Shown here: one piece after another, positions 3,001 through 53,720 of the stretch
Position numbering within the stretch: position 1 is the first letter of the stretch
How the letters are laid out: each line of letters starts with the position of its first letter
From: a virus
Lineage: Duplodnaviria > Heunggongvirae > Uroviricota > Caudoviricetes
Virus record (IMG/VR): IMGVR_UViG_2909314774_000001
Direction: 5' to 3' (one strand)
Length of the DNA stretch: 64,000 nucleotides
Position numbers and translations under genes: made by a program
The notes under the pieces: generated by a model
Databases searched by the model: none
Told to the model about the DNA's origin: nothing
Seen by the model: only the letters and a program-made list of their open reading frames with translations

Positions 3001-4224
3001 GATAAGGCGTCTGATCCTAAAGTTGTGGCGCTTTATACAAAGAAAATCAATCAACTGATTGCTGCTGGCAATACCGCGCTTATTAAAGAGACGGGGATTG
3101 CGACGCAGAAGTTGGCACTGGAATACGAAAACCTGGCAGAGCAGATCGAAAGCACCTGGACTGATTTGTTTAGTGGCTTAACTGATGTCCTGACTGATTT
3201 CGTTATTAACGGGAAGATGAGCTTCTCCAGCCTATCTCAGTCCATTTTGAAAGACATCACCAATATGGTCGTGAAGTCGCAGATCACGCTGCCTCTAATG
3301 AACATGTTGGGGATGGGAACCACCGCAGCTGGTAGTTCACAGAGTGGTAATTTGCTGACCGGGGTTGCTTCCGCCGTTGCCAATCAAGGGGTACGAATGG
3401 GCAACACTGTTAACGGCGACAAGTCGGTAGGAGAAGCCACGAAGGAGACGTCCAGTTCGGTAACTGGATTGGGGCAAACGACACAGCAGACCACCAGCGC
3501 AATTGGCACAGCAACAAATGCGATTGGTAGCTGGGTATCAGGGCTATTTGATAGCACCGAAGCCAAAGATGCTGAGACAAAAGCAGTGAAGGATTCCATC
3601 TTCTCGATGCAGAACCTCAGCTCTGTTACCGGTGCTCTGTCTGCCGCGTTTGCAATGCTTGGAGCTAATGCTTCCGGCTCTGGTAATAAGTGGTTGAATT
3701 TCGGCGCGACAGTTGCATCTGGGTTGGTTTCAGTATGGGCTGGTGGTGGATTCGATGGATTGATGTCCGGTTCTTCTGGCTCAACTTCCGGGTTCAACAA
3801 TCTGACCAGTTCTGCTGCCGATGGCACGAATGGTATTCCTGCAATTCCGAAGTTTGCAAATGGTGGCATATTCGGAAAAGACGGCGTGATCCCGCTCCGG
3901 GCATACCAGAAAGGCGGTATCGCCAACTCACCTCAATTGGCGTTGTTTGGGGAAGGCGATATGAATGAGGCGTATGTTCCATTGCCTGATGGTCGAACAA
4001 TCCCTGTAACGCTCAGTACCGATGGTATGAGTGGAGGAGGAAATGTTCTTTCTCCGGTATCAATTGAGATCAACGTCCATAGTGACGGTAGCACAACTGA
4101 ATCCGGCGATACAGAAAGCATATGGAACAATGCCGCTCAACGGATGAAAGCAATCGCGCTTGAGACTATCGCTCAAGAGAAACGCCCTGGCGGATCACTC
4201 AACCCAAACACTCAACGTAACTAA
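13..4224 (+). CDS. tail tape measure protein (lambda gpH-like)
   Basis: 1403-aa ORF directly upstream of M/L/K/I/J homologues; long alpha-helical Ala/Gln/Lys-rich body, internal hydrophobic segments, Gly-rich C-terminal region. In-frame TAA at 10-12 means the gene starts inside the window; exact start (GTG at 13 or a later ATG) uncertain. Confidence 0.8.
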   Translation: MQSELNDFSDWATYASKSASRFGTEVKEASASVSGMNTRLNTTTKRLSNWGVTTSQAAEGLKKVREQMDEVIGRQQLISKPVRVRTSGSGDGGSGRRSGASGHSGKSNEGGMFSGLRGNIFLLGEIGDAARTVTDIMFGWQKPIVEAAAEMERMRVMLRGLNKEKSNPGQAAADDMKYIVDMAQNAPFAMQALTDSFVKFRSAGLDPTDGSLKALVDSVARFGGDSELLKRAAVAVQQMSGKGVVSMEELRQQLGEAVPNAMQAMADAAGITMGELTKAVASGTVEAKQALSLMFVGLRAENENAAKDMMQTYTGALAQLQTSFTLFADRVGQAGYLDSLSKGMKELASIMNSAEGISFANSLGSGLTTAIDGLRQLAQWLAKNQELVINLGKVVAAMVAFKLMRAGIMGVVGAGSQMVSTFATMATAIQTPFNLGATAVTRFNRAARMGLAPIPSLIFAIRGAITGLKGAFAGLTAFIAANPIGAAFTVATVAVAGLITYMTMLRSETSKVVDEIRKIPEAMTAAKRAQMADRAEKLEKQILADQRALKTGEGVNYVSNSAGVITHKESKADIEARLKKNQEEYQKITGTIALGDGAVAKRLAKEAAESQIEKIRAENQIFAATFVKARQEALDKIQKINDDGSLSDDEKNKLLAPLRETVNKSYLEPAQKLVDSLSSRKNATEKQIATLNDQLEKAKKDGNTEQIQKLQGSIRGYQEHLEAVAQELTQAEFERDNAAKTGKGVMSNQGTVLGLGTTDKAAQKALAQYMRNQMDSATYQRTLPDGTPMMDFEGKPIIGPKQLKTQLNLQKASSASSLEKMSDEERAAAIAALTKAREQDAAAAEKAAQRSANASQRAAKKEQAAQQKLAAGYQKALDKADQLMGQMGESSKATVSFDQSLRDTTKSLTDLANAVPNEFITQEMIDKAKKRLEDLKNATPEYREMFNRRNVEQMISTWAPEADSIISAGYTPSREEKVADFEDTYNRNLKALIELRDKASDPKVVALYTKKINQLIAAGNTALIKETGIATQKLALEYENLAEQIESTWTDLFSGLTDVLTDFVINGKMSFSSLSQSILKDITNMVVKSQITLPLMNMLGMGTTAAGSSQSGNLLTGVASAVANQGVRMGNTVNGDKSVGEATKETSSSVTGLGQTTQQTTSAIGTATNAIGSWVSGLFDSTEAKDAETKAVKDSIFSMQNLSSVTGALSAAFAMLGANASGSGNKWLNFGATVASGLVSVWAGGGFDGLMSGSSGSTSGFNNLTSSAADGTNGIPAIPKFANGGIFGKDGVIPLRAYQKGGIANSPQLALFGEGDMNEAYVPLPDGRTIPVTLSTDGMSGGGNVLSPVSIEINVHSDGSTTESGDTESIWNNAAQRMKAIALETIAQEKRPGGSLNPNTQRN

Positions 4225-15300: not shown

Positions 15301-17655
15301 CCAACAGCTTCTGATGTAGGAGCATTATCGCTTTCTGGAGGAGCGTTAACTGGCGGATTAACTGCTGCTGGCGAGATTATTTCAAAATCGGCGAATGGTC
15401 TGCGCATTGCCTACGGAAACTACGGATTCTTTATCCGAAACGATGGTTCAAGCACATACTTCATGTTGACCGATTCGGGTAACAGCCTGGGAACCTATAA
15501 TAGTTTAAGGCCGCTTATCATTAACAATGCCAATGGTGCTGTTAGGATCGGTAATGGACTCAATGTTACTGGCGGCATCAATGGTAGTTTGAACGGTAAT
15601 GCTTCAACAGCTACGAAGTTGCAAACAGCGAGAAACATCAATGGTGTTAAGTTTGATGGTTCAGGCGATATCAATATTAATACATTGGTATCTCGTGGCC
15701 GAGTTACGGCGTTAAGCGGCTCTACTCAAGGCACTGCTGGCATTCAAATGTATGAGGCGTACAACAATAGCTACCCGACCACGTATGGCAACGTATTGCA
15801 CATGAAAGGTGCGAGTGCTGCTGGTGAGGGCGAGTTGCTTATTGGCTGGAGCGGAACGGATGGTGCTCATGCACCGGTTTATGTTCGTTCACGCCGTGAT
15901 ACTTCGACAGCGAATTGGTCTGGTTGGGCGCAGGTCTATACCACTGCTCATAAACCCACAGCGAAAGATGTTGGGGCTGCACAGACGTTTAGCGCGTCAT
16001 ACAGTACTGGGGCTGGCAACTGGACTACCGCTGAATTTATCGCATGGCTGAAGGAGCGTGGTGCTTTCGCCGTACCGTATTGGATGATGAAAGGCTCTTG
16101 GTCATATGCCGACAATAAAATTATCACTGATACAGGTGTCGGCAATATTTGTCTTGCTGGTGCGGTTATCGAGGTTTTAGGTCACGAAGGCGCAATGACC
16201 ATCCGAGTTACTACGCCTACAACGACAACCGGAGGTGGTATTGCCAGTGCTCAGTTCACCTATATTAATCACGGTAGCGCGTATGCCCCTGCCTGGCGCA
16301 GAGATTACAACACGACTCTCAAACCAACTGCGGCTGATGTTGGTGCGTTGCCGAGCGGTGGCGGCACACTTTCCGGCGCACTCACATTATCTATGGTTGC
16401 GCCGAGTGTTCAATTACGAGGGCAAGGTACTGATACCAGGCAGTACATCATGGCTTACAGAACCGATGGTGCTACATCATGGTATGTAGGTAAGGCTAAC
16501 AACGGCTCTGATAGCGCGATGCTCTGGAACTATACGGGGGCAAACGGAGTCGAGTTGGCTGCCGATGGCAATGTGCGCATTAATGCGAAGGGTAAGCAGT
16601 TTACGTTCGCAAACAACGGCAATTTGGGGCTTGTCGCTTCGTTGGATCAAAGTTCTGTTCCACAGGGCATTTACCATCAAGTTGCTATGAACTCTGGAAC
16701 CAGAGGTGCTAAATCCTATCTTCGTAAGTTCAGGGGTGGGAACGCAGATACCGTCTGGCATGAAACCGTTCAAGACGGAAATTACCGACTTGCTACTGGT
16801 GACACTGATTCTCAGGGTGAAATGTACCTTTCGACTTCGGGTTGGGTTCGTTTCCGTGGTGAAGTTGTTTCAGAATCGGCCAATGGTTTGCGAGCCGCAT
16901 TCGGTAACTTCGGTTTCTTTATCCGAAATGATGGAACGAACACTTATTTCCTTTTGACAGCTTCAGGTGACAAGTACGGTTCTTGGAATGGTTTGCGGCC
17001 TCTGACTATCAACAATGTCAGTGGCGCAGTGTCAATGAGCAACGGACTAACTGTTGCTGGTGGACTTAATGTAACGAGCGGAAACCTGAAAATCTCGACG
17101 TCCAGCACATCGTGGATCGACATGAGAGCAGGCGTAGCCCTTTCGAACTCTTCAGCTGTTTCGACGTCATCCGCTTCGGCGATAGTCCGTCAAGAACACG
17201 CCGATCGCCATTTCATTCTTGGCGGTTTGGGTAACTCGCAGTTCGGGATTTACATGATTAACAAATCTCGAACTGCGAACGGCACTGACGCTGCCGCTTA
17301 TCTCCAGAACGACGGCACTTGGGTTTGCGCAGGCAACGGTAGTTTTAATGACGTTTACATCCGTTCCGACCGCCGTAGTAAGCGCAATATTCGCAAAATT
17401 GAGCGGGCGCTCGACAAGCTGGAGCAGATCGAAGGTGTTCTCTACGAGATTCAGGTCTGTGGCCGTTATGAGCAGTCTGGTGGCCTCATCGCTCAGGATG
17501 TCCAGAATGTTCAGCCTGAACTGGTAACGGTCGACCATAACGATCAGTCAGGAGAGCCTCGTCTGCGTCTTAACTACAACGGCGTTATCGGCATGTTGGT
17601 TGAGGCTGTCAAAGAGCTGCGCGAGGAAGTGCGCGAACTGAAGGCAAAAATGTAA
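12370..17655 (+). CDS. side tail fibre protein (lambda Stf-like N-terminus and shaft, C-terminal S74-type intramolecular chaperone)
   Basis: Residues ~160-480 closely resemble the Ala/Ser-rich shaft of lambda Stf (KTSETNAAASQKSAATSASTATTKASEAATSARDA...ATPKAVK). C-terminal ~120 aa (SDRRSKRNIRKIERALDKLEQIEGVLYEIQ...LVEAVKELREEVRELKAKM) looks like the autoproteolytic chaperone domain found in endosialidase-type fibres. RBS CAAGGAG precedes the ATG. Confidence 0.85.
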   Translation: MWYREGTITFTQGSNTLVGAGTAWNVTANGVLPGMIVIGPDNKLYEIKRVTSDTNIVLSEPYTGETQSEVPCRIITTYEGDLTQFSARFTALMSRMSADSKSMRSWLTALDEVTIEREDGTEVTVKPLMQIVNEHNENVEWYKNNTDAIDAAGDKAREAAASAAAAAESANIAGEKASQASQSASAAASSQSAASASATAAKKSETNAAASQKSAATSASTATTKASEAATSARDASASKEAAKSSETSAASSATAAGNSAKAAKTSETNARSSETAAGQSASAAAGSKTAAASSASAASTSAGQASSSATAAGKSAESAASSASTATTKAGEATEQASAAARSASAAKTSETNAKASETRAESSKTAAASSASSAASSASSASASKDEATRQASAAKGSATTASTKATEAAGSATAASQSKTAAESAATRAEAAADRAEEIAGAVAMEDASLTTKGVVKLSSAVDSTSESLAATPKAVKAANDNANSRLAKNQNGADIPDKGRFLSNINVYSKGEVDKKKGMRKYTFSAPANAVSGKWYPVVFRRTGGGTDELASRVVITTYSSAGGYAMNNCEFNGFVMPGGWSDRGSYAAGFFSIYSTAERAIHSIIASVKDDDLCSVFYVETRAFPIQIFAEEGLNVIVPTADYAVGQTTYKWGATDPLSESTNAQIILDFKNGRGYYCSHPFISSLSGNAATATKLQTARSIGGVVFDGSANINLPGVNTTGNQNTTGNAATATKLQTARKISGVPFDGSTDITLTAAHVAAFARRATGSYADADGGVPWNAESGAYNVTRTGDSYILANFYTGVGSCRTLQIKANYKNGGLFYRSSRDGYGFESGWEQVYTTGFRPQPADINAPTAADGWLNSGNGTAFTTAQFITWLNNQGAFSNKYWIARCSWYYANNNYIDDTGCGRIDLSGSVIEVFSNKTTSNYTIRVTTTTTSGHGGVNNAEFIYVYNGSDYSPGWRRSYNTRNKPTASDVGALSLSGGALTGGLTAAGEIISKSANGLRIAYGNYGFFIRNDGSSTYFMLTDSGNSLGTYNSLRPLIINNANGAVRIGNGLNVTGGINGSLNGNASTATKLQTARNINGVKFDGSGDININTLVSRGRVTALSGSTQGTAGIQMYEAYNNSYPTTYGNVLHMKGASAAGEGELLIGWSGTDGAHAPVYVRSRRDTSTANWSGWAQVYTTAHKPTAKDVGAAQTFSASYSTGAGNWTTAEFIAWLKERGAFAVPYWMMKGSWSYADNKIITDTGVGNICLAGAVIEVLGHEGAMTIRVTTPTTTTGGGIASAQFTYINHGSAYAPAWRRDYNTTLKPTAADVGALPSGGGTLSGALTLSMVAPSVQLRGQGTDTRQYIMAYRTDGATSWYVGKANNGSDSAMLWNYTGANGVELAADGNVRINAKGKQFTFANNGNLGLVASLDQSSVPQGIYHQVAMNSGTRGAKSYLRKFRGGNADTVWHETVQDGNYRLATGDTDSQGEMYLSTSGWVRFRGEVVSESANGLRAAFGNFGFFIRNDGTNTYFLLTASGDKYGSWNGLRPLTINNVSGAVSMSNGLTVAGGLNVTSGNLKISTSSTSWIDMRAGVALSNSSAVSTSSASAIVRQEHADRHFILGGLGNSQFGIYMINKSRTANGTDAAAYLQNDGTWVCAGNGSFNDVYIRSDRRSKRNIRKIERALDKLEQIEGVLYEIQVCGRYEQSGGLIAQDVQNVQPELVTVDHNDQSGEPRLRLNYNGVIGMLVEAVKELREEVRELKAKM

Positions 17656-21146: not shown

Positions 21147-21815
21147 ATGACCAAGATCTTTGTGGTTGGCGGCACAAAGGGCGGGCCTGGCAAATCCACC
21201 GTTGCCCAGCAAATTGCCGTTTGCCTGAAAGTCAAAAAGAAGAAGAAGGTTTATATTACCGATATAGATATTCAGCGCACGACAACGAGCTGGTGTGAAG
21301 ACCGTCGACAGAACGAAGACCTTGAGCTGATTCCTTTTGCATACGTTCAGGATGACATCATTAAGCACCTAAAATCGCTTCAGGGTAGAGCTGAGTTTGT
21401 AGTGGTAGATGCCGGTGGCTTTGACTCCGAAATTCAGCGACAAGCGATGCTGATGGCTGACGTTATCATTATCCCGCTTCGTCCTAAGCGTCGTGATTTG
21501 AAATCTCTGCGTGACATTGATCCTATTATCGACAATGTTCGTAATGTAAACGATAAAGTGAAGGTCCGCGCGGTCATGAACCAGTGCCCGGCTTTGCCAT
21601 CACAAGTGTCTCGCATTCTGGCGGCTAAAGAGATTGTCGAGACGTTTGGCATCGAGTCTGCGCCAGTCAATCTATATAACCGCAACGTCTATGATGATGC
21701 GGAAGAGTCTGGTCGTTCTATCTTTGAAATGACCGGTAGCGAGCGCGACAAAAAGGCGGAAGCCGAGTTTGAAGAATTTGTAGATTATCTGTTGAGTCTG
21801 GAGGAAGAAGAATAA
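21147..21815 (+). CDS. ParA-type partition ATPase (small, deviant Walker A)
   Basis: VVGGTKGGPGKST deviant Walker A (KGGxGKS/T), 222 aa, followed by an overlapping small RHH protein. Confidence 0.8.
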   Translation: MTKIFVVGGTKGGPGKSTVAQQIAVCLKVKKKKKVYITDIDIQRTTTSWCEDRRQNEDLELIPFAYVQDDIIKHLKSLQGRAEFVVVDAGGFDSEIQRQAMLMADVIIIPLRPKRRDLKSLRDIDPIIDNVRNVNDKVKVRAVMNQCPALPSQVSRILAAKEIVETFGIESAPVNLYNRNVYDDAEESGRSIFEMTGSERDKKAEAEFEEFVDYLLSLEEEE

Positions 21816-22174
21816 TGTCCATGAAAATGGGTGACCTAGCAAAGCGCAAAGAGCCTGATGCACCGGCTAAGAACACAACTCCTTTGCGCCAACCAGTCAG
21901 ACCACAGGGACGCCCGACTCGTGGCAAAGAGAAAATTAAAAGCCGCACAATGTCACTGGAGGACGAATACTTCGAACTGCTGGAGATGATGAAGTTCATC
22001 CCTCGCTTCGAGAAATTCACCCGCTCTGATGTGATTCGTGCTGCTATTTTCCATCTTGCGGAGAAGACACCGCAGGAAATCGAGGACATCGTGAAACTTA
22101 ACGAGGCGATCACAGCTGCCGATGTCACGATGCGTACCGATGAAATTAAACGCGAGTTGATGAAGAAAGGGTGA
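21815..22174 (+). CDS. small centromere-binding partition protein (ParG-like RHH)
   Basis: 119 aa, start overlaps ParA stop; unstructured basic N-terminus and C-terminal RHH-like segment (SLEDEYFELLEMM...RSDVIRAAIFHL). Confidence 0.55.
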   Translation: MSMKMGDLAKRKEPDAPAKNTTPLRQPVRPQGRPTRGKEKIKSRTMSLEDEYFELLEMMKFIPRFEKFTRSDVIRAAIFHLAEKTPQEIEDIVKLNEAITAADVTMRTDEIKRELMKKG

Positions 22175-22225
22175 TTATATTGGGCGTTTGTTACGCCCAA
22201 TATATGAGTTGAAGGATAGACACCA

Positions 22226-30210: not shown

Positions 30211-31636
30211 TCGTATTAAGTAAAAGGGAGAAAGAAACGCTTCATGAAATCAGTAAGTGGCCGGAGTTCCCTGAGTACTGGAAGCCTAAAACGCGAGCTA
30301 AGTTAGAGCGTTTAGGGTTGGTTGCAAACGTTTCTGAAACGTGGTGCTCGGCCAACTACCAGTTAACTGATAAAGGGAAAGTATTGCTACAGCAATTAGT
30401 AGAATCAGGAGTGTTAAAATGATTCCATACATCTCATTAGCTTTTATGGGTGGCTTCCTTATCGGCTTCGGCATCTGTCGTGATTTAATTAAGCAGGAAC
30501 TTAAAACCAAAACACTGTGCATCGGAAAGCGTGTGTATCGGGTAGTTCATGAAACAAAGGTTAGAAAATGAGCAATTTAACTTCTTGGGACTGGTGGTTG
30601 GCCACCTATTTCTTAGCGGCCGGAGTCGCATTCGCCTTTTACGTAGGTCAGTTAGTCGTAAAACTGCTGCTGATTAAATTTGCCAGTCATAAACGTATCG
30701 ATGATGGTCTGTGGCGTCTTGGCACCCTGGTGGAAACTCGCTACGGGCAACTTAAGGAGAACGAAACCATTACTATCCAAGCGAAACGGTTCACTGCCAC
30801 CATCACAAGAACACCTAGTCGTAGAGTGGCCTTGATCAAAAAAGTCACAACCGAATAAAAATACAATGATAAGTATTTACTTACTTATCTTTTATGTATA
30901 AGATGACTTTGTTTTCGTTGAGACGCGACTGTTTGAACTTAAATACAAGTGCAAACGAAGAAGTCTATCTGGCAGTAGCCTAATAAGCCAAACACCAGCG
31001 AGGTCAGTTTCCAGCCTCGTTACCGAAATGGGACACACTGAGCGAGTGTGATTGCAGAACGCAGGAGGGAACATTCATGTTCCCTCCGATGAAGTAACAG
31101 AATGGGCGGTTGGTATATTTTCAACTCCATATGACTCCCGGATTCTTAGCCACTGACCGCCCATCCTGTTACGTCATTTTGTTCAATTATGCCGTTTATA
31201 CTGGGTTAAAAAGCGGCGACGTAGCCCGGCTGGTATGGTTAGCCAGCACACAACGTTGAGGCCATTACATTTTTATCAATTCTAAGGTTCTATTCACAGA
31301 GATACCGGCGAGCGTTGATATGTAACATGTTGGGCAAACATTCAATCGGAGTAGTGGCCTCAACGTTGTGAAGACGGGATTGTTGTGTAGGTTTAACCAC
31401 TGTTGCCATTGGTGCCTGTTTTCACAACAAATGATTCCATACATCACATTGTATAAATTACAAAGTAGGTGCTGTCCTCAGAAACATCATCTACTTAAAG
31501 ATTTTGCCTTCTACTATTGAGCGAAGTCGAAAGCGTCTGGCACTAACGAAAAGTGCAAGTAGCGGTGCGTTTCCTGGCAGAAACTAAACCGTCGCGATTG
31601 GCACTGTTGAGTAATAAATACTGGCAGTGCTGAATT

Positions 31637-31711
31637 GATGGTGTAGCTCAGCGGTAGAGCAGTTGGCTGTTAACCAACTGGTCGGTGGTTCGAATCCACC
31701 CACCATCGCCA
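31637..31711 (+). tRNA. tRNA-Asn (GTT)
   Basis: Hand-folded cloverleaf: acceptor GATGGTG/CACCATC, D-arm GCTC-AGCGGTA-GAGC, anticodon arm GTTGG-CTGTTAA-CCAAC, T-arm GGTGG-TTCGAAT-CCACC, encoded CCA. Confidence 0.85.
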
Positions 31712-31716
31712 ATTTA

Positions 31717-31803
31717 GGGGAGTTAGTCCGTAGGGGCAGCGGGGTAGACTGTAAATCTACTGTCATTGCGACTCGGGTGGTTCGACTCCATCACTCCCCA
31801 CCA
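31717..31803 (+). tRNA. tRNA-Tyr (GTA)
   Basis: Acceptor GGGGAGT/ACTCCCC, anticodon arm GTAGA-CTGTAAA-TCTAC, long variable arm, T-loop TTCGACT, encoded CCA; resembles E. coli tRNA-Tyr. Confidence 0.8.
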
Positions 31804-31807
31804 AATT

Positions 31808-31883
31808 GCCGGTTTAGCTCAGTTGGTAGAGCGCCTGCCTTGTAAGCAGGATGTCAGCGGTTCGATCCCGTTAACCGGCACCA
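31808..31883 (+). tRNA. tRNA-Thr (TGT)
   Basis: Acceptor GCCGGTT/AACCGGC, D-arm GCTC-AGTTGGTA-GAGC, anticodon arm CCTGC-CTTGTAA-GCAGG, T-arm AGCGG-TTCGATC-CCGTT, encoded CCA. Confidence 0.8.
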
Positions 31884-32203
31884 ACACAACAGGTAAGAGC
31901 ATTGGGCGAATCGGCGATACTGACCACAAGCCCGTAAATCGATAGAGTCAGACCAGTGCTCTTACCGTTGTGAGGAAGTGCAGCTCTTTGAAGCAACCAG
32001 AAGATAAGCATCTGGCTTCACAACACAACGATAAGATCATTACGGTTAATCGTCGTTCATGTGCACAATGACTGGTCGAAAGGTAGTGATCTTACCGTTG
32101 TGATGAATGCACAGGCTGATGTGCCGCAACTACAGTAGTGCGCGCTTTGCGGGGCTTGCTACAACCCTGTGTCGGAGTTCAGCACCGACCATCACAATAG
32201 CTG

Positions 32204-32290
32204 GAGAGTAGGGAGCATGGTGCTCAAGCGGTCTTGAAATCCGTCCCATTGTGCAAACGATGATGGTTCGATTCCATTACTCTCCGCCAG
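32204..32290 (+). tRNA. divergent tRNA-Ser-like gene (anticodon TGA), possibly degenerate
   Basis: Acceptor GGAGAGT/ACTCTCC, T-arm GATGG-TTCGATT-CCATT and CCA end are good; anticodon loop CTTGAAA as in tRNA-Ser(UGA), but the D-arm and anticodon stem fold poorly. Confidence 0.45.
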
Positions 32291-32443
32291 ACACAGCGTT
32301 GAGCGGTTTGGCCTTTTAATCAACCAGATTAAGACTCCGCTAACATAAACCAGACCGCTCAACGCTGTGATAGACAATTACGGCAGACGTTCTTAACCAT
32401 AGCTTGCTAACATCCTAGCAACACTTTTTTCAGCGCAAAATTC

Positions 32444-32466
32444 AAAGGGGCTTCGGCCCCTTTTTT
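32444..32466. terminator. bidirectional intrinsic terminator
   Basis: AAAGGGGC-TTCG-GCCCCTTTTTT hairpin with A-tract upstream and T-tract downstream, between the tRNA cluster and the 3' end of the minus-strand 420-aa gene. Confidence 0.7.
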
Positions 32467-32481
32467 GTTGAACAGTGCAAT

Positions 32482-33744
32482 TTACTTTGCATAGTCGCCC
32501 AATTTTAATATTTCGCGCTTATATTCATTAACCATGCTACTGGATTCAGTATAAATTCGATTTAAAAGATTATCGTTATCTTTATTTTCATTTATCTTAA
32601 TTAGTGCTAATTTATATTCATAGTCATCAAATGCCACAATTAAATGGTGGCCTGGGATTATATCTTCGTCACTCTTAAAGTATATATCTTCAAGTATGTA
32701 ATCTAGTTGATTAGATTTTCTTTTCTCGATGTAATCTTCAGCCATAGCTATTACATCATTCCTGTCATTTAACCTGTTTTTTTCGGAAGGCACATCTTCG
32801 TAATGTTGCACGATTGAACAACCAATAAGGCGTGGGATGTAAACGTCAAAATGAGTAACTCTATCATTCGCGGTTTTAAGTAGTTCCTCAAAGTAGTTTC
32901 TTACATGTAAAGGCAACTTCTCAAAGTAATCATTAATTATAGGAGAACAAGGAGTTTTATAATTCATAAGAACCGACGGTACGAGCTTTGGGTGTCGAAA
33001 CATCCAGTCCCTTTTAACGTCCGATGGAACATAATAACTTTTAATGATATTATCAAAATAATTTATCATTCGAGATTTGAATATTTTGTTGAATCTAAGG
33101 TTTATGAATGTATCCAGATAAGGCATATTTGAATAAGCATCATCAAAAAATATTTCATCATTGAAAAAATCATATTTATTCAATAAACAACACAGTTTTT
33201 CCGAATTAATATGTTCACAATAATCGATTTTTAATCCAAAGATAGCAATGATCAACTTCATCTGAGGTGGGATTTTAAAAATTAATTGTGACACATACGC
33301 TCTTTTTTCCTTGAGACATTCCCCATCAATATAAAATGAACCATCCACATACTCAAATATATTAATAATATGCTTCACATACTGTATTACCTCATGCTGT
33401 CTTACCAATGGGTAATATAGTCTATGTAACTCATCGCTGTTTAAATTAATTTTGTGTTTATCGATAATTTGTTTTGCAAGAAGACATAACTCATCATGTT
33501 GATTTAATAAGGAATCAAACCATTGTTTAAATGCACTCTTTCGCATTTCGAACAATGATTCAGTTGTTAATTGAAGGGCTGAAAAAGCTGCTTTTGCACT
33601 TTTTCTCGCTTCGTAGGCATTCCATGCTGTTGCTATAAAAGCAAATGCTGTAGCCAATGTTCCAACAGTTTGACCATTTAAAACAACCCAATCCCAAAAA
33701 ATGACGGTGAGCAGTAGTATAATAATGAAAATTAAAAAAGGCAT
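32482..33744 (-). CDS. membrane-anchored protein of unknown function in low-GC cargo region (abortive-infection-like candidate)
   Basis: 420 aa; two N-terminal hydrophobic helices (FLIFIIILLLTVIFWDWVV, GTLATAFAFIATAW) then a large Asn/Tyr/Asp-rich soluble domain; opposite strand to neighbours, AT-rich, own promoter region and terminator. Confidence 0.5.
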   Translation of the reverse strand: MPFLIFIIILLLTVIFWDWVVLNGQTVGTLATAFAFIATAWNAYEARKSAKAAFSALQLTTESLFEMRKSAFKQWFDSLLNQHDELCLLAKQIIDKHKINLNSDELHRLYYPLVRQHEVIQYVKHIINIFEYVDGSFYIDGECLKEKRAYVSQLIFKIPPQMKLIIAIFGLKIDYCEHINSEKLCCLLNKYDFFNDEIFFDDAYSNMPYLDTFINLRFNKIFKSRMINYFDNIIKSYYVPSDVKRDWMFRHPKLVPSVLMNYKTPCSPIINDYFEKLPLHVRNYFEELLKTANDRVTHFDVYIPRLIGCSIVQHYEDVPSEKNRLNDRNDVIAMAEDYIEKRKSNQLDYILEDIYFKSDEDIIPGHHLIVAFDDYEYKLALIKINENKDNDNLLNRIYTESSSMVNEYKREILKLGDYAK

Positions 33745-33918
33745 GTATGTATTTCACTCTACTAACTATAAAATATTAGGCTAATGTTAACCAAACAATG
33801 CCTTAATTAATAGATTGATCGAGGCTTTAATAGCTTTATAATGCAGATTGCAAAGATAAGTATGCACACACCTATCTTCTTTGTAAGTAAAGTTGCATAT
33901 CAATTCTATGAGGTAACA

Positions 33919-34164
33919 ATGACAATCACTATCTACGGACGAGATAACTGCTCATACTGCAAACGTGCGGTCGAGCTGGCGAAGCAACTAAAGGGACATG
34001 GCTACGGTGATTATGAGTACATCGACATCACTACTGCCGGTATCGACAAGGAAAAACTTAGTGAAATTGTTGGTAAACCGGTAGAGACTATCCCCCAAGT
34101 ACTGATCGATGGTCAACCGATTGGCGGATACACAGAACTGGCTGCATACGTCAGCACCCTCTGA
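33919..34164 (+). CDS. glutaredoxin-like protein (NrdH/Grx type)
   Basis: MTITIYGRDNCSYCKRA with CxxC active site and GGY..L C-terminal motif of glutaredoxins; GAGG RBS; followed by hairpin terminator 34169-34194 (AACGGCTC-ACAG-GAGCCGTT + T-run). Confidence 0.75.
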   Translation: MTITIYGRDNCSYCKRAVELAKQLKGHGYGDYEYIDITTAGIDKEKLSEIVGKPVETIPQVLIDGQPIGGYTELAAYVSTL

Positions 34165-34375
34165 TTTTAACGGCTCACAGGAGCCGTTTTTTATTCCCAC
34201 CAAACTCACTCCTGTTTCCCTTAAAATTCAAAAAACAACGTCTAAATGATTCCATACCTACTATGTATGGAATCATTGCTGAAAATGAGTTACTTTTACT
34301 CTTGATCCTATAAGAATCTATGCCTAATATACTGTTTACTTATACAGTGCATCGGCGTAACTCGGTGATTGTCAT

Positions 34376-35479
34376 ATGAAAAATAGCTTTGACAGAGCAC
34401 GCGCTGCGGAGAACACCTCAAAAGAGGCGATAGAGTATCTCGAAAGAGCATCTCAAATGCAGGCCGTTATGATCTCCCAGGTCAGCAATGACATGAGATT
34501 CTCGGACGCATTCATGTTATTCACTCGCTTATCTCTGCTGATAACCAGACGTCGGCCAGAGATCGCTGTTCATTGTATTTTGATACATGTTTTGCCGCAC
34601 ATTGCCGATGTAAAAGTAAGTGACATTAATAGGTTCATGGTGAACCAACTGGTCAACCCACTAATACTGGATGGCAAAATTGTTATGGGCCGCCGCGTTT
34701 TCTCTCTGATGAAGCAGTTCCTTAGCTGGTGCGCCTTCCAGGGGATGATAGACGTGTCACCGTTAAACGATATGTCACTTAACAAAGTTGCCGGTGGCGC
34801 AAAGCCCACACCTCGCGAGCGGAAGCTGACCGACGCAGAGGTATGGGTGTTCTGGAATATATGGGACTACTTCAATGTGTGTGCTGGTACAAAATGGGCG
34901 GCCAGGCTATGTCTTGTATCCGCAAGACGACCTGACGAAGTACTGCGGGCTAAAAAAAGTGAGTTCAATCTTAAGCGTGGGGTTTGGAATCAAGGCAAGA
35001 GGAACAAATCTGCCCGTGAGCATTCTCTGCCTTTAAGCTCATTAATGCGCACTTGTATTGAAGAGTTGTTCGAATATGGTAAAGACAGCCAGTGGCTCGT
35101 GCCTTCGAATAAAAAAATCGGGAAAGACCTTCCTATGTCTAAAGTGGCAATAGCCCAGGCATTACGTCGTATTCTGGAACGACCAGAACTGATGGAGCTT
35201 GAGCCATTTACACCCCGAGATTTGCGCCGTACTGCGCGTAGTTACTTCCCAGCATTAGGCATAAGCCAGGAGGTATCACGTAAAATCATGAACCACAGTC
35301 TTGAGGGGATAGATCGGGTCTACGACCGGCACGATTATATGGACGAGATGCGAGACGCCTTAGAAAGTTTCTCGACGTACATCGCATCAATCGTAGAGCA
35401 ACCGGATTTAGACGAAATTGACCACAAATTTAAGGGAGATCGTCTATCAACAGAGCTTATTCGTGTAAATTTTTCATAG
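34376..35479 (+). CDS. tyrosine site-specific recombinase
   Basis: C-terminal catalytic region with LVSARRPDEVL (box I Arg), PRDLRRTARS (box II) and IMNHSLEGIDRVYDRHDY (HxxxxxxxxY, Tyr nucleophile). N-terminal region unusual, start uncertain. Confidence 0.7.
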   Translation: MKNSFDRARAAENTSKEAIEYLERASQMQAVMISQVSNDMRFSDAFMLFTRLSLLITRRRPEIAVHCILIHVLPHIADVKVSDINRFMVNQLVNPLILDGKIVMGRRVFSLMKQFLSWCAFQGMIDVSPLNDMSLNKVAGGAKPTPRERKLTDAEVWVFWNIWDYFNVCAGTKWAARLCLVSARRPDEVLRAKKSEFNLKRGVWNQGKRNKSAREHSLPLSSLMRTCIEELFEYGKDSQWLVPSNKKIGKDLPMSKVAIAQALRRILERPELMELEPFTPRDLRRTARSYFPALGISQEVSRKIMNHSLEGIDRVYDRHDYMDEMRDALESFSTYIASIVEQPDLDEIDHKFKGDRLSTELIRVNFS

Positions 35480-35860
35480 AGACTTTATGGCCTCAACAAC
35501 CTTTTGTGATGCGCCTTTCTCTTTACCGAATCGCTCGTTATATGCAGCAAGAACCTGTTTTTCGTCCTCGTTAAGAGGAGCAGTGCCTTCTTTGTATAAA
35601 AATGCTGCGAGTTCGGGTTGGCGTTCTTCCAGCACCATCATCATAAGACGACTTGGCTCAATACCCAGTGCCAGCGCCAGCGGACGAACCTTATCGATAG
35701 GCAAAGGAATTTTGCCGCTTTTAATTAAAGAAAGGTTGTTGGCGTTTTTATACCCAATTGTTTTGGCTATCTGGGCCTGGCTCATAGGTGAGGATTCAAT
35801 CAACCCTGCGATAAAAGCAGCGTAGCGACTTTCTATAAATTCAATCTTGTTATCAGACAT
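35474..35860 (-). CDS. XRE-family helix-turn-helix transcriptional regulator
   Basis: 128 aa, convergent with the recombinase; HTH segment SQAQIAKTIGYKNANNLSLIKSG resembles Cro/CI-type DNA-binding domains. Confidence 0.6.
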   Translation of the reverse strand: MSDNKIEFIESRYAAFIAGLIESSPMSQAQIAKTIGYKNANNLSLIKSGKIPLPIDKVRPLALALGIEPSRLMMMVLEERQPELAAFLYKEGTAPLNEDEKQVLAAYNERFGKEKGASQKVVEAIKSL

Positions 35861-36422
35861 GGTTACAACCTTTGCGCGTTCAATTCTCTCTGGTAAGTGC
35901 TTACCGATATTACATCAAAGGTTAGGGTTGTAAAGCTATTATCATTTTTTTCGATAGGCACTTAAAAGACCGGTTAAAGGCCATTGCACGGAGAAAAATT
36001 AGCCCAAAACAGGTAAGAAAATCAACTTGCATATGATATGAATGTATTCAGTATTGATACAAATTTTAGTAGTATTCCTTACCATAATATAAGTTAGAAT
36101 GGATTGATTGAATGAACACCACTATTTCCAGCCTAATCGCTCTTGAGATCGGACACGTACAGAAATTAGCTGATGAGTGTGTAGCTGACATCCTCACCGA
36201 TCTACCGAATGAGCAGATTCAGGTTGGTGTGAATGACACAACTGGATTTATATTCGAACTTAACAACAAACGCTTCACGCTTCTCAATACCGGCTCCGGG
36301 TCTTTAGCCGTCAGAATCTGTTAACCCCTCTTCTCCCTGCGCGAATGGCTTAGTTCCCTGTTCGCGCAGTGCTACATTAAACACACTAGTAAATAATTTG
36401 TTTTCATAACAAAGGATTAGCC

Positions 36423-40042: not shown

Positions 40043-43000
40043 ATGAAGGCACTGATGGTTCGAACTGACTTCTCACTTGGGGAGTCGGCTCTAAAAGCAG
40101 AAAACGCGGTGAAGATTGCCAGAGAAGCTGGCTACACCGCTGTAATTTCAGCAGATAGCATGAATATTGCAAGTGTTATTCCACTACAACGTGCCGCTGG
40201 TGACGACATGGCGGTTATTTGTGGTGTGAAACTAAACATTGTTGATGATCCCACATACGAGCACCGGGCTAAACTTGCTAAAGAATCTATGAGATGTATG
40301 GAATCATTAGAGCGGGGACGTAACTACTCGTTTACCGCTCTAATTAAAAATGAGCAAGGATATCGCGACATCTGCGAACTAATGACGGCGGCCAACACAC
40401 GAGAACAGTTCTACTTTGTACCGCGTCTCTCGCTCGAACAGTTGGTTTCTACATATGCCAAAGGCAACATCATCCTGCTTACTTCCGACATCGGTAGCGT
40501 GTTCCAACGCAACGATTTTGCAAAAATCATAAGCACACTGATTACAGCGGGTGGAAAAGACAACTTCTATAGTGTGGTTTATCCGCACCCTACCCCATTC
40601 TACGACCAGATTAACGTCCGGGCGATGAAAGTCGCCAGCGCATTGAAAATAGAGCCAGTGGCGTTCTATCCCGCTTATTACGAATCGATCGACGATGCAG
40701 ACATTAAAGACATTGCGCACATGGTTACGAACAACATCAAAATCGACCAGCCGCATCGTCTGCGTATCCCCCACCAGCGAGATAACGCCGTCAATGGTCG
40801 CCGCCATCTCCTTGAGGCGCTTAAAGCCTTCTCCGTTCGCATGGATGTGCCGGTAACAGCTGCAATGGCCTCAACAACGCAGGATACCATTATCGATGCC
40901 TGCACATGGCGCTGGCATGAATTGCCGCCAGCACTGCCAAAGATGGCAGACGACGAGCCTGCAACGCTTATGAAACTGGCTGTTGCAGGGCTGCGTAAAC
41001 GTCTTACCACAAAAGAGTTTGGCTACACACCACCTGCTTCTGAGAACAGGGTTTATGTTGAGCGGCTAAAGTACGAAATGGACACGCTGACTCGCCTGGG
41101 ATTTTGTGGTTACTTCCTGATGGTACGCGATCTGATGAATCATAGTCGTGAAACTGGCATTCCCGTTGGGCCTGGTCGTGGTTCCTCTGCCGGTTCTCTG
41201 GTGGCGTGGTGCATAGGCATAACCAACGTCGACCCAATCCGTCACGGTCTTCTGTTTGAGCGTTTCATCAACCCTGAGCGTCTCGACTTGCCGGATGCGG
41301 ACTTGGACTTCAGCCAGGCACGTCGCCATGAGGTGATCGAGTATCTGAATGAACGCTACGGCGAAGATTACGTTGCGGGTATTCCGAACTTCACCTACCT
41401 GGGCGCAGCCTCTGCACTACGTGATACCGCTCGTATTTATGGTGTGGAGTCCGCAGATATGGCGGTATCAAAAGAACTGAAGAACGCTGAGGATGATAGC
41501 CTTCCATTGGAAGAACTGCGCGAACAACTGGCAAGTCTCGACAAATACGCAACAAAATATCCTGATGCATTCAATGCAGCCTGCAAGTTACAAAGCCTTA
41601 TGCGTGGCTTTGGTAGACATGCGGCAGGGATGATCGTAGCAGGTGTTCCTCTGACAGAACGTACACCGGTTGAGCGCCGTGGTGACGCGCGTTGTATCGC
41701 ATTTGACAAGCGTTACTGCGAGGCTATGGGCCTAATTAAGCTGGACGTGCTTGGCCTGGCAACTCTCGATTTGCTCGATAGTGCAAAACGCTACATAAAA
41801 GAGAACACAGGTGAAGATATCAATCTTGATGCCATTTCTCTTGAAGATCGCAAGGTGCTGGATGGTTTTGCTGCTGGGTACACTCAAGGTGTTTTCCAGC
41901 TTGAATCAGGCCCAATGCGCAAGCTGCTTAAAGATTTAGGTGGTGGAATTGAGCCAATGAGCTTTAAAACGGTCGTCGCTACAACTGCGCTCTTCCGGCC
42001 GGGGCCAATTCAATCAGGCATGTTGGATGACTATGTTTCTGTCGCCAAAGGCTTTATGACGCCGGAATCATTACACCCCGTTCTTGATGAACTTACCGCG
42101 GAAACAAATGGCGTGATTCTCTATCAGGAACAGACGATGAACGCGACTCGATTGCTTGCCGGCTTCACAATGGCTGAAGCTGACGCTGTGCGTTCCGCAA
42201 TCGGTAAGAAGAACATGGAAAAAATGAAGAGCATGGGCGAGAAGTTCATCGTTCAGGCTCAAGCTGGCTGGATAGACGTTGAGCTGGAAGATGGCACTAC
42301 ACAGCGCATTCACCGTGCGGAACATTTTAAATGCGAAGACGGAACTCTGAAAACTGTCGAAGAGGCACTTGAGCACGGCGCAAAACTACCTATAAACGCA
42401 GTACGCGTTACAGCGTCACATCCAGGGCTATCAGAGATGAAAGCGAAGGAGATCTGGACCGCATTTGAGAAAAACGGAGCCTATCAGTTCAATAAATCAC
42501 ACTCCGTTGCTTATTCTTTAATCAGTTATCAGTCTATGTGGCTAAAGACGCACTACCCTGCTGAGTTCTTCGCAGCTGCGCTCACCATTCTGGGCGAGGA
42601 TAAGCATCAGGGGCTGGTGAAGGATGCGCTGACCTATGGCATTCGCGTATTGCCACCAGACGTTAATGTGTCATCTAACCGAATTGAGATCCGCACACTC
42701 GAAGACGGCAGTCAGGCACTGTATGCGCCATTCTCTGCTGTGAAAGGCTGTTCTGAAAATGGTTGTCAGGCAATTATGCGTGCGCGTGAGAAAGTTGGTG
42801 GCAAATTCGAGTCAGTGGCACAATTCGATGAAGCGGTCGAGAAGCGTGCATGTAACAGTCGTGTACGCGAGTCGCTTCATAAAGTAGGGGCTTTTGCGTC
42901 AATTGAGCCAGGCAGTCTTCCAGCAACTGATCCTGAACGACTGCGCGACCAGGCTGAGCTGATGGGCAATCTCATCATTGACGCTGTTAAAGCATCACGT

Positions 43001-43561
43001 CCGTTCGAAATGAATCCTAAGCGTTCTGCCGAAATCAACGTACTCATGACACGTATGGCGGCTGAAATGGGCTTGGGTGAGGAGTTGATACGCCCGACTA
43101 TTGGTATTAAACCCAAAATCATGATCATTCTGGACAATGCGAACGGCAATGACGCTCGTACCGGCTACTTCATGGAGAACGGATACGACGACTTTAAGGC
43201 AAAACTACTGACAGTTGGAGATCTGCGCATGGGCGATCTTTATGTCACGGGTGTTTGTAAGAAGGTTAAGGACAAAGAGAAAGACTATACCAAAGACGAG
43301 ATAGGCCAGTTCACAGACTTTATGCGGGAAGAAATTAATCTTGTACGACCAACCTACATTTTGACGTGTGGTAGTCGTTCAACCGCACTATTTAACAATA
43401 AGAGTAAACCATCAGATCTGATTGGTCGTAAGGAGTACTTCCCAGAGCTTGATGCAACCGTCTTCTACGGATTTAACCCGAATATCCTGTACTTCCGACC
43501 GGAAGAAGGAGAGCGACTGGAGGCCATTCTGGCTGATATCGCGGAGACAATAAATAAGTAA
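40043..43561 (+). CDS. dnaE: DNA polymerase III alpha subunit homologue (DnaE-type, PHP domain)
   Basis: 1172 aa; hallmark Pol III alpha segment GFCGYFLMVRDLMNHSRETGIPVGPGRGSSAGSLVAWCIGITNVDPIRHGLLFERFINPER and downstream catalytic Asp region LPDADLDF; followed by intrinsic terminator 43566-43592 (AAACCCGCC-TGTT-GGCGGGTTT). Confidence 0.85.
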   Translation: MKALMVRTDFSLGESALKAENAVKIAREAGYTAVISADSMNIASVIPLQRAAGDDMAVICGVKLNIVDDPTYEHRAKLAKESMRCMESLERGRNYSFTALIKNEQGYRDICELMTAANTREQFYFVPRLSLEQLVSTYAKGNIILLTSDIGSVFQRNDFAKIISTLITAGGKDNFYSVVYPHPTPFYDQINVRAMKVASALKIEPVAFYPAYYESIDDADIKDIAHMVTNNIKIDQPHRLRIPHQRDNAVNGRRHLLEALKAFSVRMDVPVTAAMASTTQDTIIDACTWRWHELPPALPKMADDEPATLMKLAVAGLRKRLTTKEFGYTPPASENRVYVERLKYEMDTLTRLGFCGYFLMVRDLMNHSRETGIPVGPGRGSSAGSLVAWCIGITNVDPIRHGLLFERFINPERLDLPDADLDFSQARRHEVIEYLNERYGEDYVAGIPNFTYLGAASALRDTARIYGVESADMAVSKELKNAEDDSLPLEELREQLASLDKYATKYPDAFNAACKLQSLMRGFGRHAAGMIVAGVPLTERTPVERRGDARCIAFDKRYCEAMGLIKLDVLGLATLDLLDSAKRYIKENTGEDINLDAISLEDRKVLDGFAAGYTQGVFQLESGPMRKLLKDLGGGIEPMSFKTVVATTALFRPGPIQSGMLDDYVSVAKGFMTPESLHPVLDELTAETNGVILYQEQTMNATRLLAGFTMAEADAVRSAIGKKNMEKMKSMGEKFIVQAQAGWIDVELEDGTTQRIHRAEHFKCEDGTLKTVEEALEHGAKLPINAVRVTASHPGLSEMKAKEIWTAFEKNGAYQFNKSHSVAYSLISYQSMWLKTHYPAEFFAAALTILGEDKHQGLVKDALTYGIRVLPPDVNVSSNRIEIRTLEDGSQALYAPFSAVKGCSENGCQAIMRAREKVGGKFESVAQFDEAVEKRACNSRVRESLHKVGAFASIEPGSLPATDPERLRDQAELMGNLIIDAVKASRPFEMNPKRSAEINVLMTRMAAEMGLGEELIRPTIGIKPKIMIILDNANGNDARTGYFMENGYDDFKAKLLTVGDLRMGDLYVTGVCKKVKDKEKDYTKDEIGQFTDFMREEINLVRPTYILTCGSRSTALFNNKSKPSDLIGRKEYFPELDATVFYGFNPNILYFRPEEGERLEAILADIAETINK

Positions 43562-52230: not shown

Positions 52231-52662
52231 ATCCACTGTAGTCAGTAACAAAACCTTCCTACATATCTGCTAACCACTGTAGCGAGTAGACAGCCTTTCA
52301 TTCGCATCAAACAACCACTATGGTGAGTATTGGAGTGAGATGTCCAGCGGGTATCCACTATGGTGAGTAAGCCTTTGCTGTTTTCAGTGGATATCCACTC
52401 GCCACAGTGGATACGCTCAAAGATGAGGGCGACAACAACCACTATAGACAGTAAATTTTCCAAGATACCCAGTGACCACTAACCTCGCAGCCCTTGTTTC
52501 ATCAGTGTTAGTGATCACTAACATTTAATTCAGTATTTGCATTCTACTGCCTACAGTGGTTATCAACAGATAACGATACTCACTATAGTGGATAGCGAAT
52601 TACAGATATAAGTAAGGCTCACTACAGTGGATAGTGAGCCTTACTACTAACTACAGTGGTTG
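52231..52662. repeat. iteron array downstream of repA (incA-like), both orientations
   Basis: About nine copies of a ~19-bp unit with core CCACTRTAG / CTAYAGTGG (e.g. ccactgtagtcagtaac, ccactatggtgagta, cactatagtggatag, ctacagtggatag) plus palindrome GTGGATATCCAC at 52387-52398. Confidence 0.8.
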
Positions 52663-52664
52663 GG

Positions 52665-53720
52665 CTATTTGCGAGTCTTTGCCTTGCGCAACTCTTCGAG
52701 AAGCGCCAGTTCTTCTTTACTCAACATGACCATTTTGCCTTCTTTTTCGTCAGGCACAACGTCGATAATGTCATCTTGATTCTCATCTGGGAGGCTATAT
52801 TCCGTCTCATCATTATCGATTTTTGTTGATATTTGTGCCTGGCGTAACTTTGGCCGCCTATAGTGGATGACGAAGTAGACCGAGTTTCCGCGCTTAACTT
52901 CCGTGTAATCGAGATATCCTATCTCTCGCAGCTGTTCCATAGCCTTTCTTACCGTCGCATTCTGAGTAATAGTGCGACTTGTCAGATTAAGTCTGGCGCG
53001 TAAACGGGCTAGTGATATTGGTGCCGGATCAGGCGGCAAACTTTCAATAAAAGTATAAAGCGCCTGAGCGGATTCTTTTCTTGAGAGTTCGTTTATAGCC
53101 CGGAGTTGCAGAAGAACCTTTTTGTCGAACTGGTAGAGTTCGAAAATCTTGGGATCTGCTTTCAGTTCGACCGTATCGTGCTTGACACTATATTTTGCCG
53201 TTTGCACAAGATGCGTTACGTAAAACTCATCAGAGCCTTTGCTACGGAACGAGATGGTATTTGTGGCAATACGGCTTAGCGAACTGTCCAGGCGTTTGCG
53301 TAACTTCGCTGATGACCTGGCGGTCGGAATGCCACACAGCCTTACAAACTCAACGAACGGCAATGTGACAGTATCGCCAACGACCTTGTGTTTGGCAAAC
53401 GCGTGGATTATTCCCACCCACGTTTTAAAGTCGTTATCCATATCAAGCCGAAGGCCAGAGATCCTTATGTCTTCGTACCCTTCGGCTTTTGCCAGAGACA
53501 GCTGTTTGAGTTCAGCAGAGGCATCCATAGAGACCATTTGCCCCTTTCTTCCTCTGGATGTCGATTTCAGCGTCGGAACGAAGAGGCCCAGACGCATCAA
53601 AGCAACAGGCTGAACAGTGTTATTAGTGTTAGGAACCAACGTAACAACTTCGCCTGTCTTTTTATCTGTTTCTGAAAATGCTTCAACGATCGCTATGTTT
53701 TTATTGCCGTTTTCGCTCAT
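52665..53720 (-). CDS. repA: iteron-binding replication initiator (RepA-like)
   Basis: 351-aa ORF flanked on both sides by arrays of its likely binding sites and adjacent to DnaA boxes and an AT-rich stretch; call is from context, I cannot verify the family by sequence. Confidence 0.6.

Follow-up and report, generated by a model that had tools for sequence, protein, structure and literature searches.

A predicted lox-like core site and convergent lone half-sites around the tyrosine recombinase of an SSU5/pHCM2-type phage-plasmid

What is the perfect inverted repeat that stands just upstream of a tyrosine recombinase gene in the virus record IMGVR_UViG_2909314774_000001, and which protein reads it? 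The stretch analysed here, 64,000 nucleotides in length (hereafter the window), is, as judged from its sequence, an SSU5/pHCM2-type (SSU5/Cyrano-type) phage-plasmid, with ~97% identity to Escherichia phage Cyrano (pLF82) and to CMS-2020a. Phage-plasmids of this type are found in ~5% of complete Escherichia coli genomes (251/5,426) and occur commonly in Klebsiella, Salmonella, Enterobacter and Yersinia pestis as well. They can carry resistance genes, and the circuits that govern their maintenance and induction have for the most part not been characterised. Tyrosine recombinases are among the persistent genes of the SSU5 supergroup, and dimer resolution is expected of them in general. The literature names no site for them, and our search found the sequence of the palindrome in no relevant paper. 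The comparisons presented below make this palindrome the almost certain target of the adjacent recombinase, and they make it probable, though well short of certain, that the pair carries out multimer resolution in the manner of Cre/loxP, and that several lone half-sites nearby are binding sites for recombinase monomers. A concrete, if predicted, site is now assigned to the conserved recombinase of these phage-plasmids.

The predicted core recombination site, AATGATTCCATAC-CTACTAT-GTATGGAATCATT, occupies positions 34245-34277 and consists of a left arm (34245-34257), the 7-bp spacer CTACTAT (34258-34264) and a right arm (34265-34277). The original prediction, which described a perfect 13-7-13 palindrome ~100 bp upstream of the recombinase, is confirmed by the sequence, the exact distance to the ATG at 34376 being 98 bp. 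By chance, only 0.02 perfect inverted repeats of this kind (13-bp arms, spacer of 3-12 bp) would be expected per window (200 Markov resamplings). Conservation of the site was assessed in about 150 loci, gathered via the recombinase (64), via DnaE, which serves as an unbiased anchor (80), and via distant homologues (9). Class I comprises recombinases at least 56% identical to that of the window, with TGATTCCATAC arms, and class II those with 44-50% identity and TGACTCCAGAC arms. The upstream-region alignment comprises 64 distinct class I sequences, all with identical arms, while the spacer is always 7 bp long, occurs in 10 sequence variants and nearly always begins with a pyrimidine. The palindrome is found in the same place at every class I locus, and the full site is present once per genome. 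We found no switch in GC skew at the palindrome that would point to an origin or terminus there. About 10 bp to its left lies a loosely conserved A-rich box, AAAATTCAAAAAA (34223-34235), and boxes resembling AGATTTCAAAAAA or AGAATTTAAA keep a constant distance from the palindrome in relatives. Since this box persists across otherwise unrelated left contexts, the conserved module seems to start there and not in the spacer. The box may act as a bend or an accessory element, or it may mark the outer edge of the module.

Comparison of the two classes revealed that the site follows its recombinase. Class II recombinases have the same 13-7-13 layout, their arms lying 20-130 bp upstream of the gene. 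They occur in Providencia, Xenorhabdus, Erwinia, Pantoea and Rahnella, and the arms found in Photorhabdus are intermediate. For instance, the Providencia site is TATGACTCCAGAC-TACATAG-GTCTGGAGTCATT, and those of Xenorhabdus, Erwinia, Pantoea and Rahnella are similar. Furthermore, the palindrome accompanies the recombinase on an Erwinia plasmid, on a Pantoea 507-kb replicon and on a Rahnella 723-kb replicon, near which there is no helix-turn-helix (HTH) partner gene, no dnaE and no phage gene. Since the arms follow the recombinase clades and the pair sits on unrelated replicons, site and recombinase co-vary and are transferred together, and this provides the strongest available evidence for the recombinase as the binder of the palindrome. 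The original proposal that the neighbouring tyrosine recombinase uses the palindrome as its core site is thus supported, the palindrome having the properties of such a site. A more distant homologue, with 27% identity (locus L067), is a classical arm-domain integrase without a comparable palindrome, and it was set aside as uninformative. The existence of two natural specificity classes with identical geometry suggests that these pairs could become orthogonal lox-like tools.

The distribution of the module is that of a plasmid element. In the survey of 5,426 complete E. coli genomes we recorded 254 occurrences in the 251 positive genomes; all of them are plasmid-borne and none is chromosomal. 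The recombinase clade is present on 932 plasmids of PLSDB, which include SSU5-type phage-plasmids, Yersinia pestis plasmids and megaplasmids of Pantoea and Rahnella.

The recombinase gene (34376-35479, + strand) encodes a protein of 367 residues, annotated as an integrase and matching the Pfam family Phage_integrase at 2.9e-10; it is of the simple type. Its catalytic residues are intact: R185, K211, R284, H307 and Y316 are invariant or nearly so in 54 homologues, and in the recombinase clade Arg281 stands in for the first His of the HxxR box. The nearest relatives in sequence are P4-type integrases, with at most 34% identity, from which the clade is sharply set apart. The N-terminal arm-binding domain PF13356, present in these nearest P4-type integrases, is absent from the clade. 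A search of PDB sequences gave no match at E<0.01, Cre included. In the comparison of folds, the top PDB structural match of the AlphaFold2 model (pLDDT 87.9, pTM 0.81) is the core-binding and catalytic domains of lambda Int on COC' core DNA (E 1e-7), followed by weaker matches to Tn1549 Int, Xer and IntI, with SroF also among the matches and Cre as a distant one (Foldseek E ~8e-3). The model therefore predicts a two-domain fold, core-binding and catalytic, that clamps DNA. The likeness to P4- and lambda-type integrases thus concerns both sequence and structure, and extends to the spacer, since the lambda overlap is likewise 7 bp. However, the recombinase of the window differs from these enzymes by the lack of PF13356, by the Arg in place of the HxxR His and by never being integrated in E. 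coli chromosomes.

In its organization, the module most resembles Cre/loxP of P1, as well as ResD/rfsF of F and Rsd/crs of Salmonella virulence plasmids. A plasmid-borne tyrosine recombinase has a simple site beside its gene, in which two inverted 13-bp arms flank a short, asymmetric spacer; there are no arm-type sites, and multimer resolution is what would be expected in a low-copy plasmid prophage. The differences are nevertheless clear. There is no detectable sequence relation to Cre, and the similarity in fold is distant, with a Foldseek E of ~8e-3 as against 1e-7 for lambda Int. Moreover, the spacer is 7 bp, not 8 as in loxP; a LexA-type box is found at the promoter, and lone half-sites lie kilobases away. 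By analogy, each 13-bp arm would be bound by one recombinase monomer, and strand exchange would take place across the 7-bp spacer. Recombinase and site would then make up a module complete in itself, comparable to Cre/loxP or ResD/rfsF and able to convert the plasmid dimers that arise by homologous recombination back to monomers, and it may circularise incoming phage DNA too. We infer multimer resolution because the arm domain is absent, a lox-like site adjoins the gene, the spacer drifts freely and the distribution is restricted to plasmids. Free drift of the spacer would be acceptable if the only partners of a site are identical sister copies. Among the three functions that the original prediction had listed, namely a multimer-resolution site, an attP core and cassette-like exchange of cargo, the first one fits best, given that the site co-varies and moves with the recombinase and that all E. 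coli copies reside on plasmids.

The second question raised by this locus concerns the additional copies of the arm. Exact copies of the 13-mer start at 30418 (+), 31430 (+), 34245 (+) and 34265 (-), the third and fourth being the arms of the palindrome, and a further one occupies 40296-40308 (-). Five such matches were reached in 0 of 100 shuffles, and the 16-mer gives the same result. The arm copies described originally are therefore real, but the exact copy in dnaE had been missed. Likewise, the 17-mer AAATGATTCCATACATC is indeed found at 31429-31445, whereas its other occurrence, placed at 30418-30434, actually lies at 30417-30433. In the single copies the conserved unit is a 15-mer, ATGATTCCATACA(T/C)C. 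None of them has a second arm, and their spacer-equivalent bases (ATC...) never match the spacers of palindromes.

The positions of these copies are conserved in relatives, a point that the original prediction wanted checked. Half-site copy 1, AATGATTCCATACATC (30418-30433, +), overlaps the stop codon of a 71-aa open reading frame (ORF) and the start codon of a 50-aa ORF; its position is kept in relatives, and the 15-mer is invariant amid variable flanks. Copy 2 (31430-31445, +) is non-coding and lies ~200 bp upstream of tRNA-Asn. Its mean column conservation is 0.93, compared with 0.62 for the flanks, in an alignment of 19 distinct sequences that was anchored on the motif. The third copy (40293-40308, -) is located within dnaE, the gene of the DNA polymerase III alpha subunit (40043-43561), where it covers the codons C-M-E-S-L. 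The sequence TGTATGGAATCATT is identical in 37 of the 38 distinct dnaE 5' sequences, third-codon positions included, while adjacent codons change the encoded amino acid; the constraint on this copy is thus exerted at the nucleotide level. In the dnaE 5' region of one relative (L033), a 9-bp tandem duplication, TATGAGATG in two units, lies beside the half-site and adds three codons.

A further copy is found within the recombinase gene itself. In the window it is a degenerate version, TTGATTCCAAAC (34982-34993, -), and probably non-functional; in Cyrano it has one mismatch, and in relatives with 56-87% identical recombinases it is intact (cTTGATTCCATACATC) at +606 of the recombinase gene. In a relative with 60% identity, a copy is present at a new position on the left. 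Throughout the whole Cyrano genome, the single copies are confined to ~9 kb around the palindrome. Considering five distinct positions, the left copies are all on the + strand and the right copies all on the - strand, so that every one points at the palindrome, an arrangement with a chance probability of ~1/32. Lone copies are seen solely in genomes whose palindrome shares the arm sequence; in class II phage-plasmids, examined within 10 kb on each side, none were detected. The single copies are probably extra binding sites for recombinase monomers, with a regulatory or architectural role. A lone 15-nucleotide copy would bind a single monomer and, without a partner arm, would be unable to recombine. 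While the recombinase/site pair is of a known type, the convergent lone half-sites and the SOS box are what is new. No known resolution system explains convergent, strictly conserved half-sites, one of which is placed within the coding sequence of the replicative polymerase.

How the recombinase gene is controlled was addressed through its upstream region. A candidate promoter, read from the sequence, is present at 34302-34330 (+), with TTGATC (34302-34307) and TAATAT (34325-34330) separated by a 17-bp spacer. Both hexamers form conserved islands across the 64 distinct upstream regions; the candidate has 8 of 12 consensus matches and falls under the threshold of a consensus scanner. A LexA-type SOS box, TACTGTTTACTTATACAGTG (34330-34349), overlaps the -10 and start region and has the form CTGT-N8-ACAG at 34332-34347. 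This motif occurs once in the window, and its mere presence is not significant, because 0.93 occurrences are expected per window. The pattern CTG(T/G)-N8-ACAG is, however, kept in 57 of the 64 distinct class I upstream regions around a variable, AT-rich centre. Since class II relatives and class I relatives with 56-60% identity have no such box, it seems to be an addition specific to this enterobacterial lineage. In one relative (L143), a group II intron (approx. 2197-4105 of that locus, 5' GTGCG, with a 495-aa reverse transcriptase/maturase) is inserted directly after the LexA-type box and puts 2 kb between the palindrome and promoter on one side and the recombinase gene on the other.

Published expression data for Cyrano accord with a response to DNA damage. 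The recombinase transcript has log2 values of 5.6 in lysogeny broth (LB), 6.1 after 6 h in medium and 10.3 after 6 h in macrophages (S1 Table, PMC9928086), which corresponds to a ~19-26-fold rise. Macrophages provoke the SOS response in strain LF82, and ciprofloxacin induces Cyrano 39-fold (PMC9928086). The transcript of CYRAN_98, an S24 gene with a LexA box, increases from log2 7.2 to 12.2 in macrophages, ~30-fold, and those of dnaE, repA and metRS remain flat (PMC9928086). Indeed, we found a near-consensus LexA box, TACTGTATGTGTATACAGTA, at position 89277 of the Cyrano sequence OV696614 (L159), directly 5' of CYRAN_98, which encodes a LexA-like S24 peptidase. Although correlative, these data are consistent with a recombinase promoter under LexA/SOS control. 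The LexA box would keep recombinase expression low in normal growth and let it go up once SOS is induced, a state in which recombination and dimer formation increase.

Several observations weigh against a resolvase that also owns the lone half-sites. First, SSU5 has neither recombinase nor HTH gene nor palindrome, yet it retains three single copies; a different binder of these copies, encoded by the backbone, is conceivable. Second, the ATC that follows the arm is conserved in single copies and never present in palindrome spacers, so the two kinds of site are not strictly equivalent. As for the regulation, hicAB and CYRAN_46 are also up in macrophages, which shows that the rise is not specific to genes with a LexA box, and a LexA-repressed promoter would be unusual for a maintenance resolvase. 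This last objection is tempered by the basal expression of the recombinase in LB, which is ~5 times that of neighbouring genes.

The weight given to SSU5 depends on its history. It is the only relative without the module among the loci of the DnaE-anchored set with enough upstream sequence. Since every other such relative has the module, SSU5 is probably a recent deletion derivative. Being a lone exception, it is weakened as a natural knockout that would prove the single copies to be independent of the recombinase. In the place of the module, between tRNA-Asn and a CobT-like gene, SSU5 (L003) has a 12-9-12 inverted repeat, CTGTACGAACAG-attagatac-CTGTTCGTACAG (15567-15599).

A second reading, which we regard as possible but doubtful, assigns two roles to the recombinase: it would recombine at the palindrome and, when induced by DNA damage, occupy the lone half-sites. 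These are placed symmetrically around the palindrome, where a small ORF begins, before the tRNA cluster, within the recombinase gene and within dnaE. The protein could be a regulator or architectural factor like MrpR or SroF that has nonetheless remained catalytically competent; other variants would be a polar system comparable to KOPS or Ter, or site-specific nicking. If true, any of these variants would tie the SOS response to replication, or to the choice between lysis and lysogeny, in a very widespread family of phage-plasmids.

Precedents exist for parts of this scheme. MrpR, YopR and SroF are master repressors of SPbeta-like phages that have a recombinase fold and recognise a 15-bp motif dispersed through the phage genome; in MrpR most catalytic residues are gone, and it shows no recombination and acts as the lysogenic repressor (PMC10516654; bioRxiv 10.1101/2025.11.27.690993). 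The module described here shares with them the recombinase fold, the asymmetric sites of ~15 bp (three to four lone 15-mers over 9 kb, predicted to be bound) and the link to SOS, whereas, unlike MrpR, its recombinase keeps the catalytic set and a full palindromic site and appears to be SOS-induced. Accessory motifs are also known from other recombinases, such as the third repeat of FRT and DR1/DR2 of the Tn4430 TnpI site, and polar KOPS motifs converge on dif. As in these systems, extra copies of a motif are found outside the core, with an orientation set relative to the crossover site. However, the accessory repeats of FRT and Tn4430 lie within tens of bp, as opposed to 0.7-6 kb and partly within genes in the present case, while KOPS are numerous and are read by FtsK, not by the recombinase.

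Alternatively, all copies and the palindrome could be operators of a regulator that is not the recombinase, such as the HTH repressor or a backbone protein like the product of the 71-aa ORF, similar to the dispersed asymmetric C1 operators of P1. We regard this as unlikely. It would readily account for the three copies in SSU5, for the palindrome lying ~25 bp before the -35 hexamer of the candidate recombinase promoter and for the spread of asymmetric 15-mers over 9 kb. Yet the palindrome follows the recombinase onto plasmids that have neither HTH nor phage genes, its arms change with the recombinase clade, and SSU5 stands as the exception discussed above. In addition, arms of 13 bp spaced 20 bp centre to centre are a poor fit for a small HTH dimer. 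The HTH repressor was specifically rejected as the binder, since it is missing from the non-phage carriers and the divergent region between its gene and the 70-aa ORF has repeats of its own that differ from the motif.

The palindrome could also be a point of cargo insertion or exchange, like attI of integrons, with the direct single copies being hybrid sites left by earlier insertions. Several features evoke this quite unlikely scenario. Plasmids that share an identical recombinase differ strongly in the DNA to the left of the palindrome; in several relatives, megablast homology picks up again at 34243-34245, at the outer edge of the left arm, and the left copies are oriented as insertion scars would be. 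As in integrons, the tyrosine recombinase has a LexA box, its site lies just upstream and variable genes adjoin. However, block mapping shows that homology between relatives is uninterrupted through copies 1 and 2, and that the variable DNA sits elsewhere, in two slots (~32467-33907 and ~34146-34243) and in the tRNA cluster. The half-sites therefore do not bound variable DNA, and the original suggestion that they bracket cargo for cassette exchange is not supported. Copies inside dnaE and the recombinase gene, in continuous coding sequence under purifying selection, are not scars and contradict cassette ends too, as does the mismatch of their spacer-equivalent bases with palindrome spacers. 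Furthermore, there is one full site per genome, neither attC-type sites nor a cassette array are present, the closest structure is lambda Int with IntI a weaker match, and the persistence of the A-rich box left of the arm across contexts indicates that the break is not in the spacer. A shufflon of the Rci/sfx type fares no better: neither the order nor the orientation of genes varies among the ~150 loci, an inversion would split dnaE, and the spacer-equivalent bases are not identical between copies.

Could the single copies work at the RNA level? The motif would then be present in RNA from the start region of the 50-aa ORF and in the tRNA cluster leader, and these transcripts would pair in trans as antisense RNA with the dnaE mRNA and, in some relatives, with that of the recombinase. 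All genes here being on the + strand, the left copies would indeed yield 'sense' RNA and the right copies complementary RNA; in the window, copy 1 and the dnaE copy match over 20 nucleotides, and two observed substitutions would retain G-U pairs. On the other hand, we found no co-variation beyond the fixed 15-mer, the flanks diverging independently for each copy, and no matching Rfam family. The motif is identical to the recombinase arm, and this arm differs between recombinase clades; if the motif were an RNA seed, that match would be a coincidence without explanation. We consider such pairing very unlikely.

Integration into the chromosome, with the palindrome as an attP core, is highly improbable. 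This possibility, raised by the original prediction, is suggested by the integrase annotation, by descent from P4-type integrases and by an order of site, integrase, repressor and cro-like gene that recalls integrative phages. But the arm-binding domain is absent, the module is also carried by megaplasmids, and the lack of chromosomal occurrences among the 254 found in E. coli refutes it, if weakly and for this species. Finally, that the repeats are duplicated 5' gene ends encoding paralogous MIPY peptides is practically excluded by the reading frames: ATG ATT CCA TAC is present in each copy and copy 1 starts a real 50-aa ORF, yet it alone does so, the dnaE copy reading MIPYIS-stop in antisense within the gene, SSU5 copy 2 reading MIPYIQ-stop and the palindrome arms being intergenic.

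Downstream of the recombinase, a gene for a putative HTH repressor (35474-35860, -) converges on the recombinase gene with a 6-bp overlap; it belongs to the context and is not part of the site. Its Cyrano orthologue is the putative master repressor (PMC9928086). There is no terminator between the two convergent genes, and the convergence is kept in the distant phage-plasmids L148, L149, L152 and L156. SOS-induced transcription of the recombinase, running antisense into the repressor gene, could constitute an induction route. Between the HTH gene and the 70-aa ORF lies GGTAAG-TG-CTTACC (35893-35906), with more GGTAAG/CTTACC units at 36012-36017 and 36077-36083. These units are candidate operators of the repressor, distinct from the recombinase motif.

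Upstream, the first variable cargo slot contains a low-GC 420-aa ORF (32482-33744, -) without a Pfam match, and other genes take this place in relatives with an identical recombinase. Long hairpins with CACAAC...GTTGTG ends are found among the tRNA genes in the region 30860-32400 (31089-31177, 31249-31370, 31892-31966, 32019-32103 and 32292-32369), and this region is conserved in SSU5. Rfam returned only tRNAs there, plus sub-threshold tmRNA-like matches at 30853-31034. The hairpins may be structured RNAs or processing elements.

Two other palindromes are present in the window. Directly after the operon of parA (21147-21815) and a 119-aa partner (21815-22174), a perfect 12-5-12 palindrome, TATATTGGGCGT-ttgtt-ACGCCCAATATA (22176-22204), has no T-run and may be a terminator or a partition site. 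The region 52540-52660, just downstream of repA (52665-53720, -), contains a perfect 14-7-14 palindrome, AGTAAGGCTCACTA-CAGTGGA-TAGTGAGCCTTACT (52611-52645), together with four CTA(C/T)AGTGG repeats that resemble iterons. This iteron region at ~52.5 kb is probably the plasmid replication origin.

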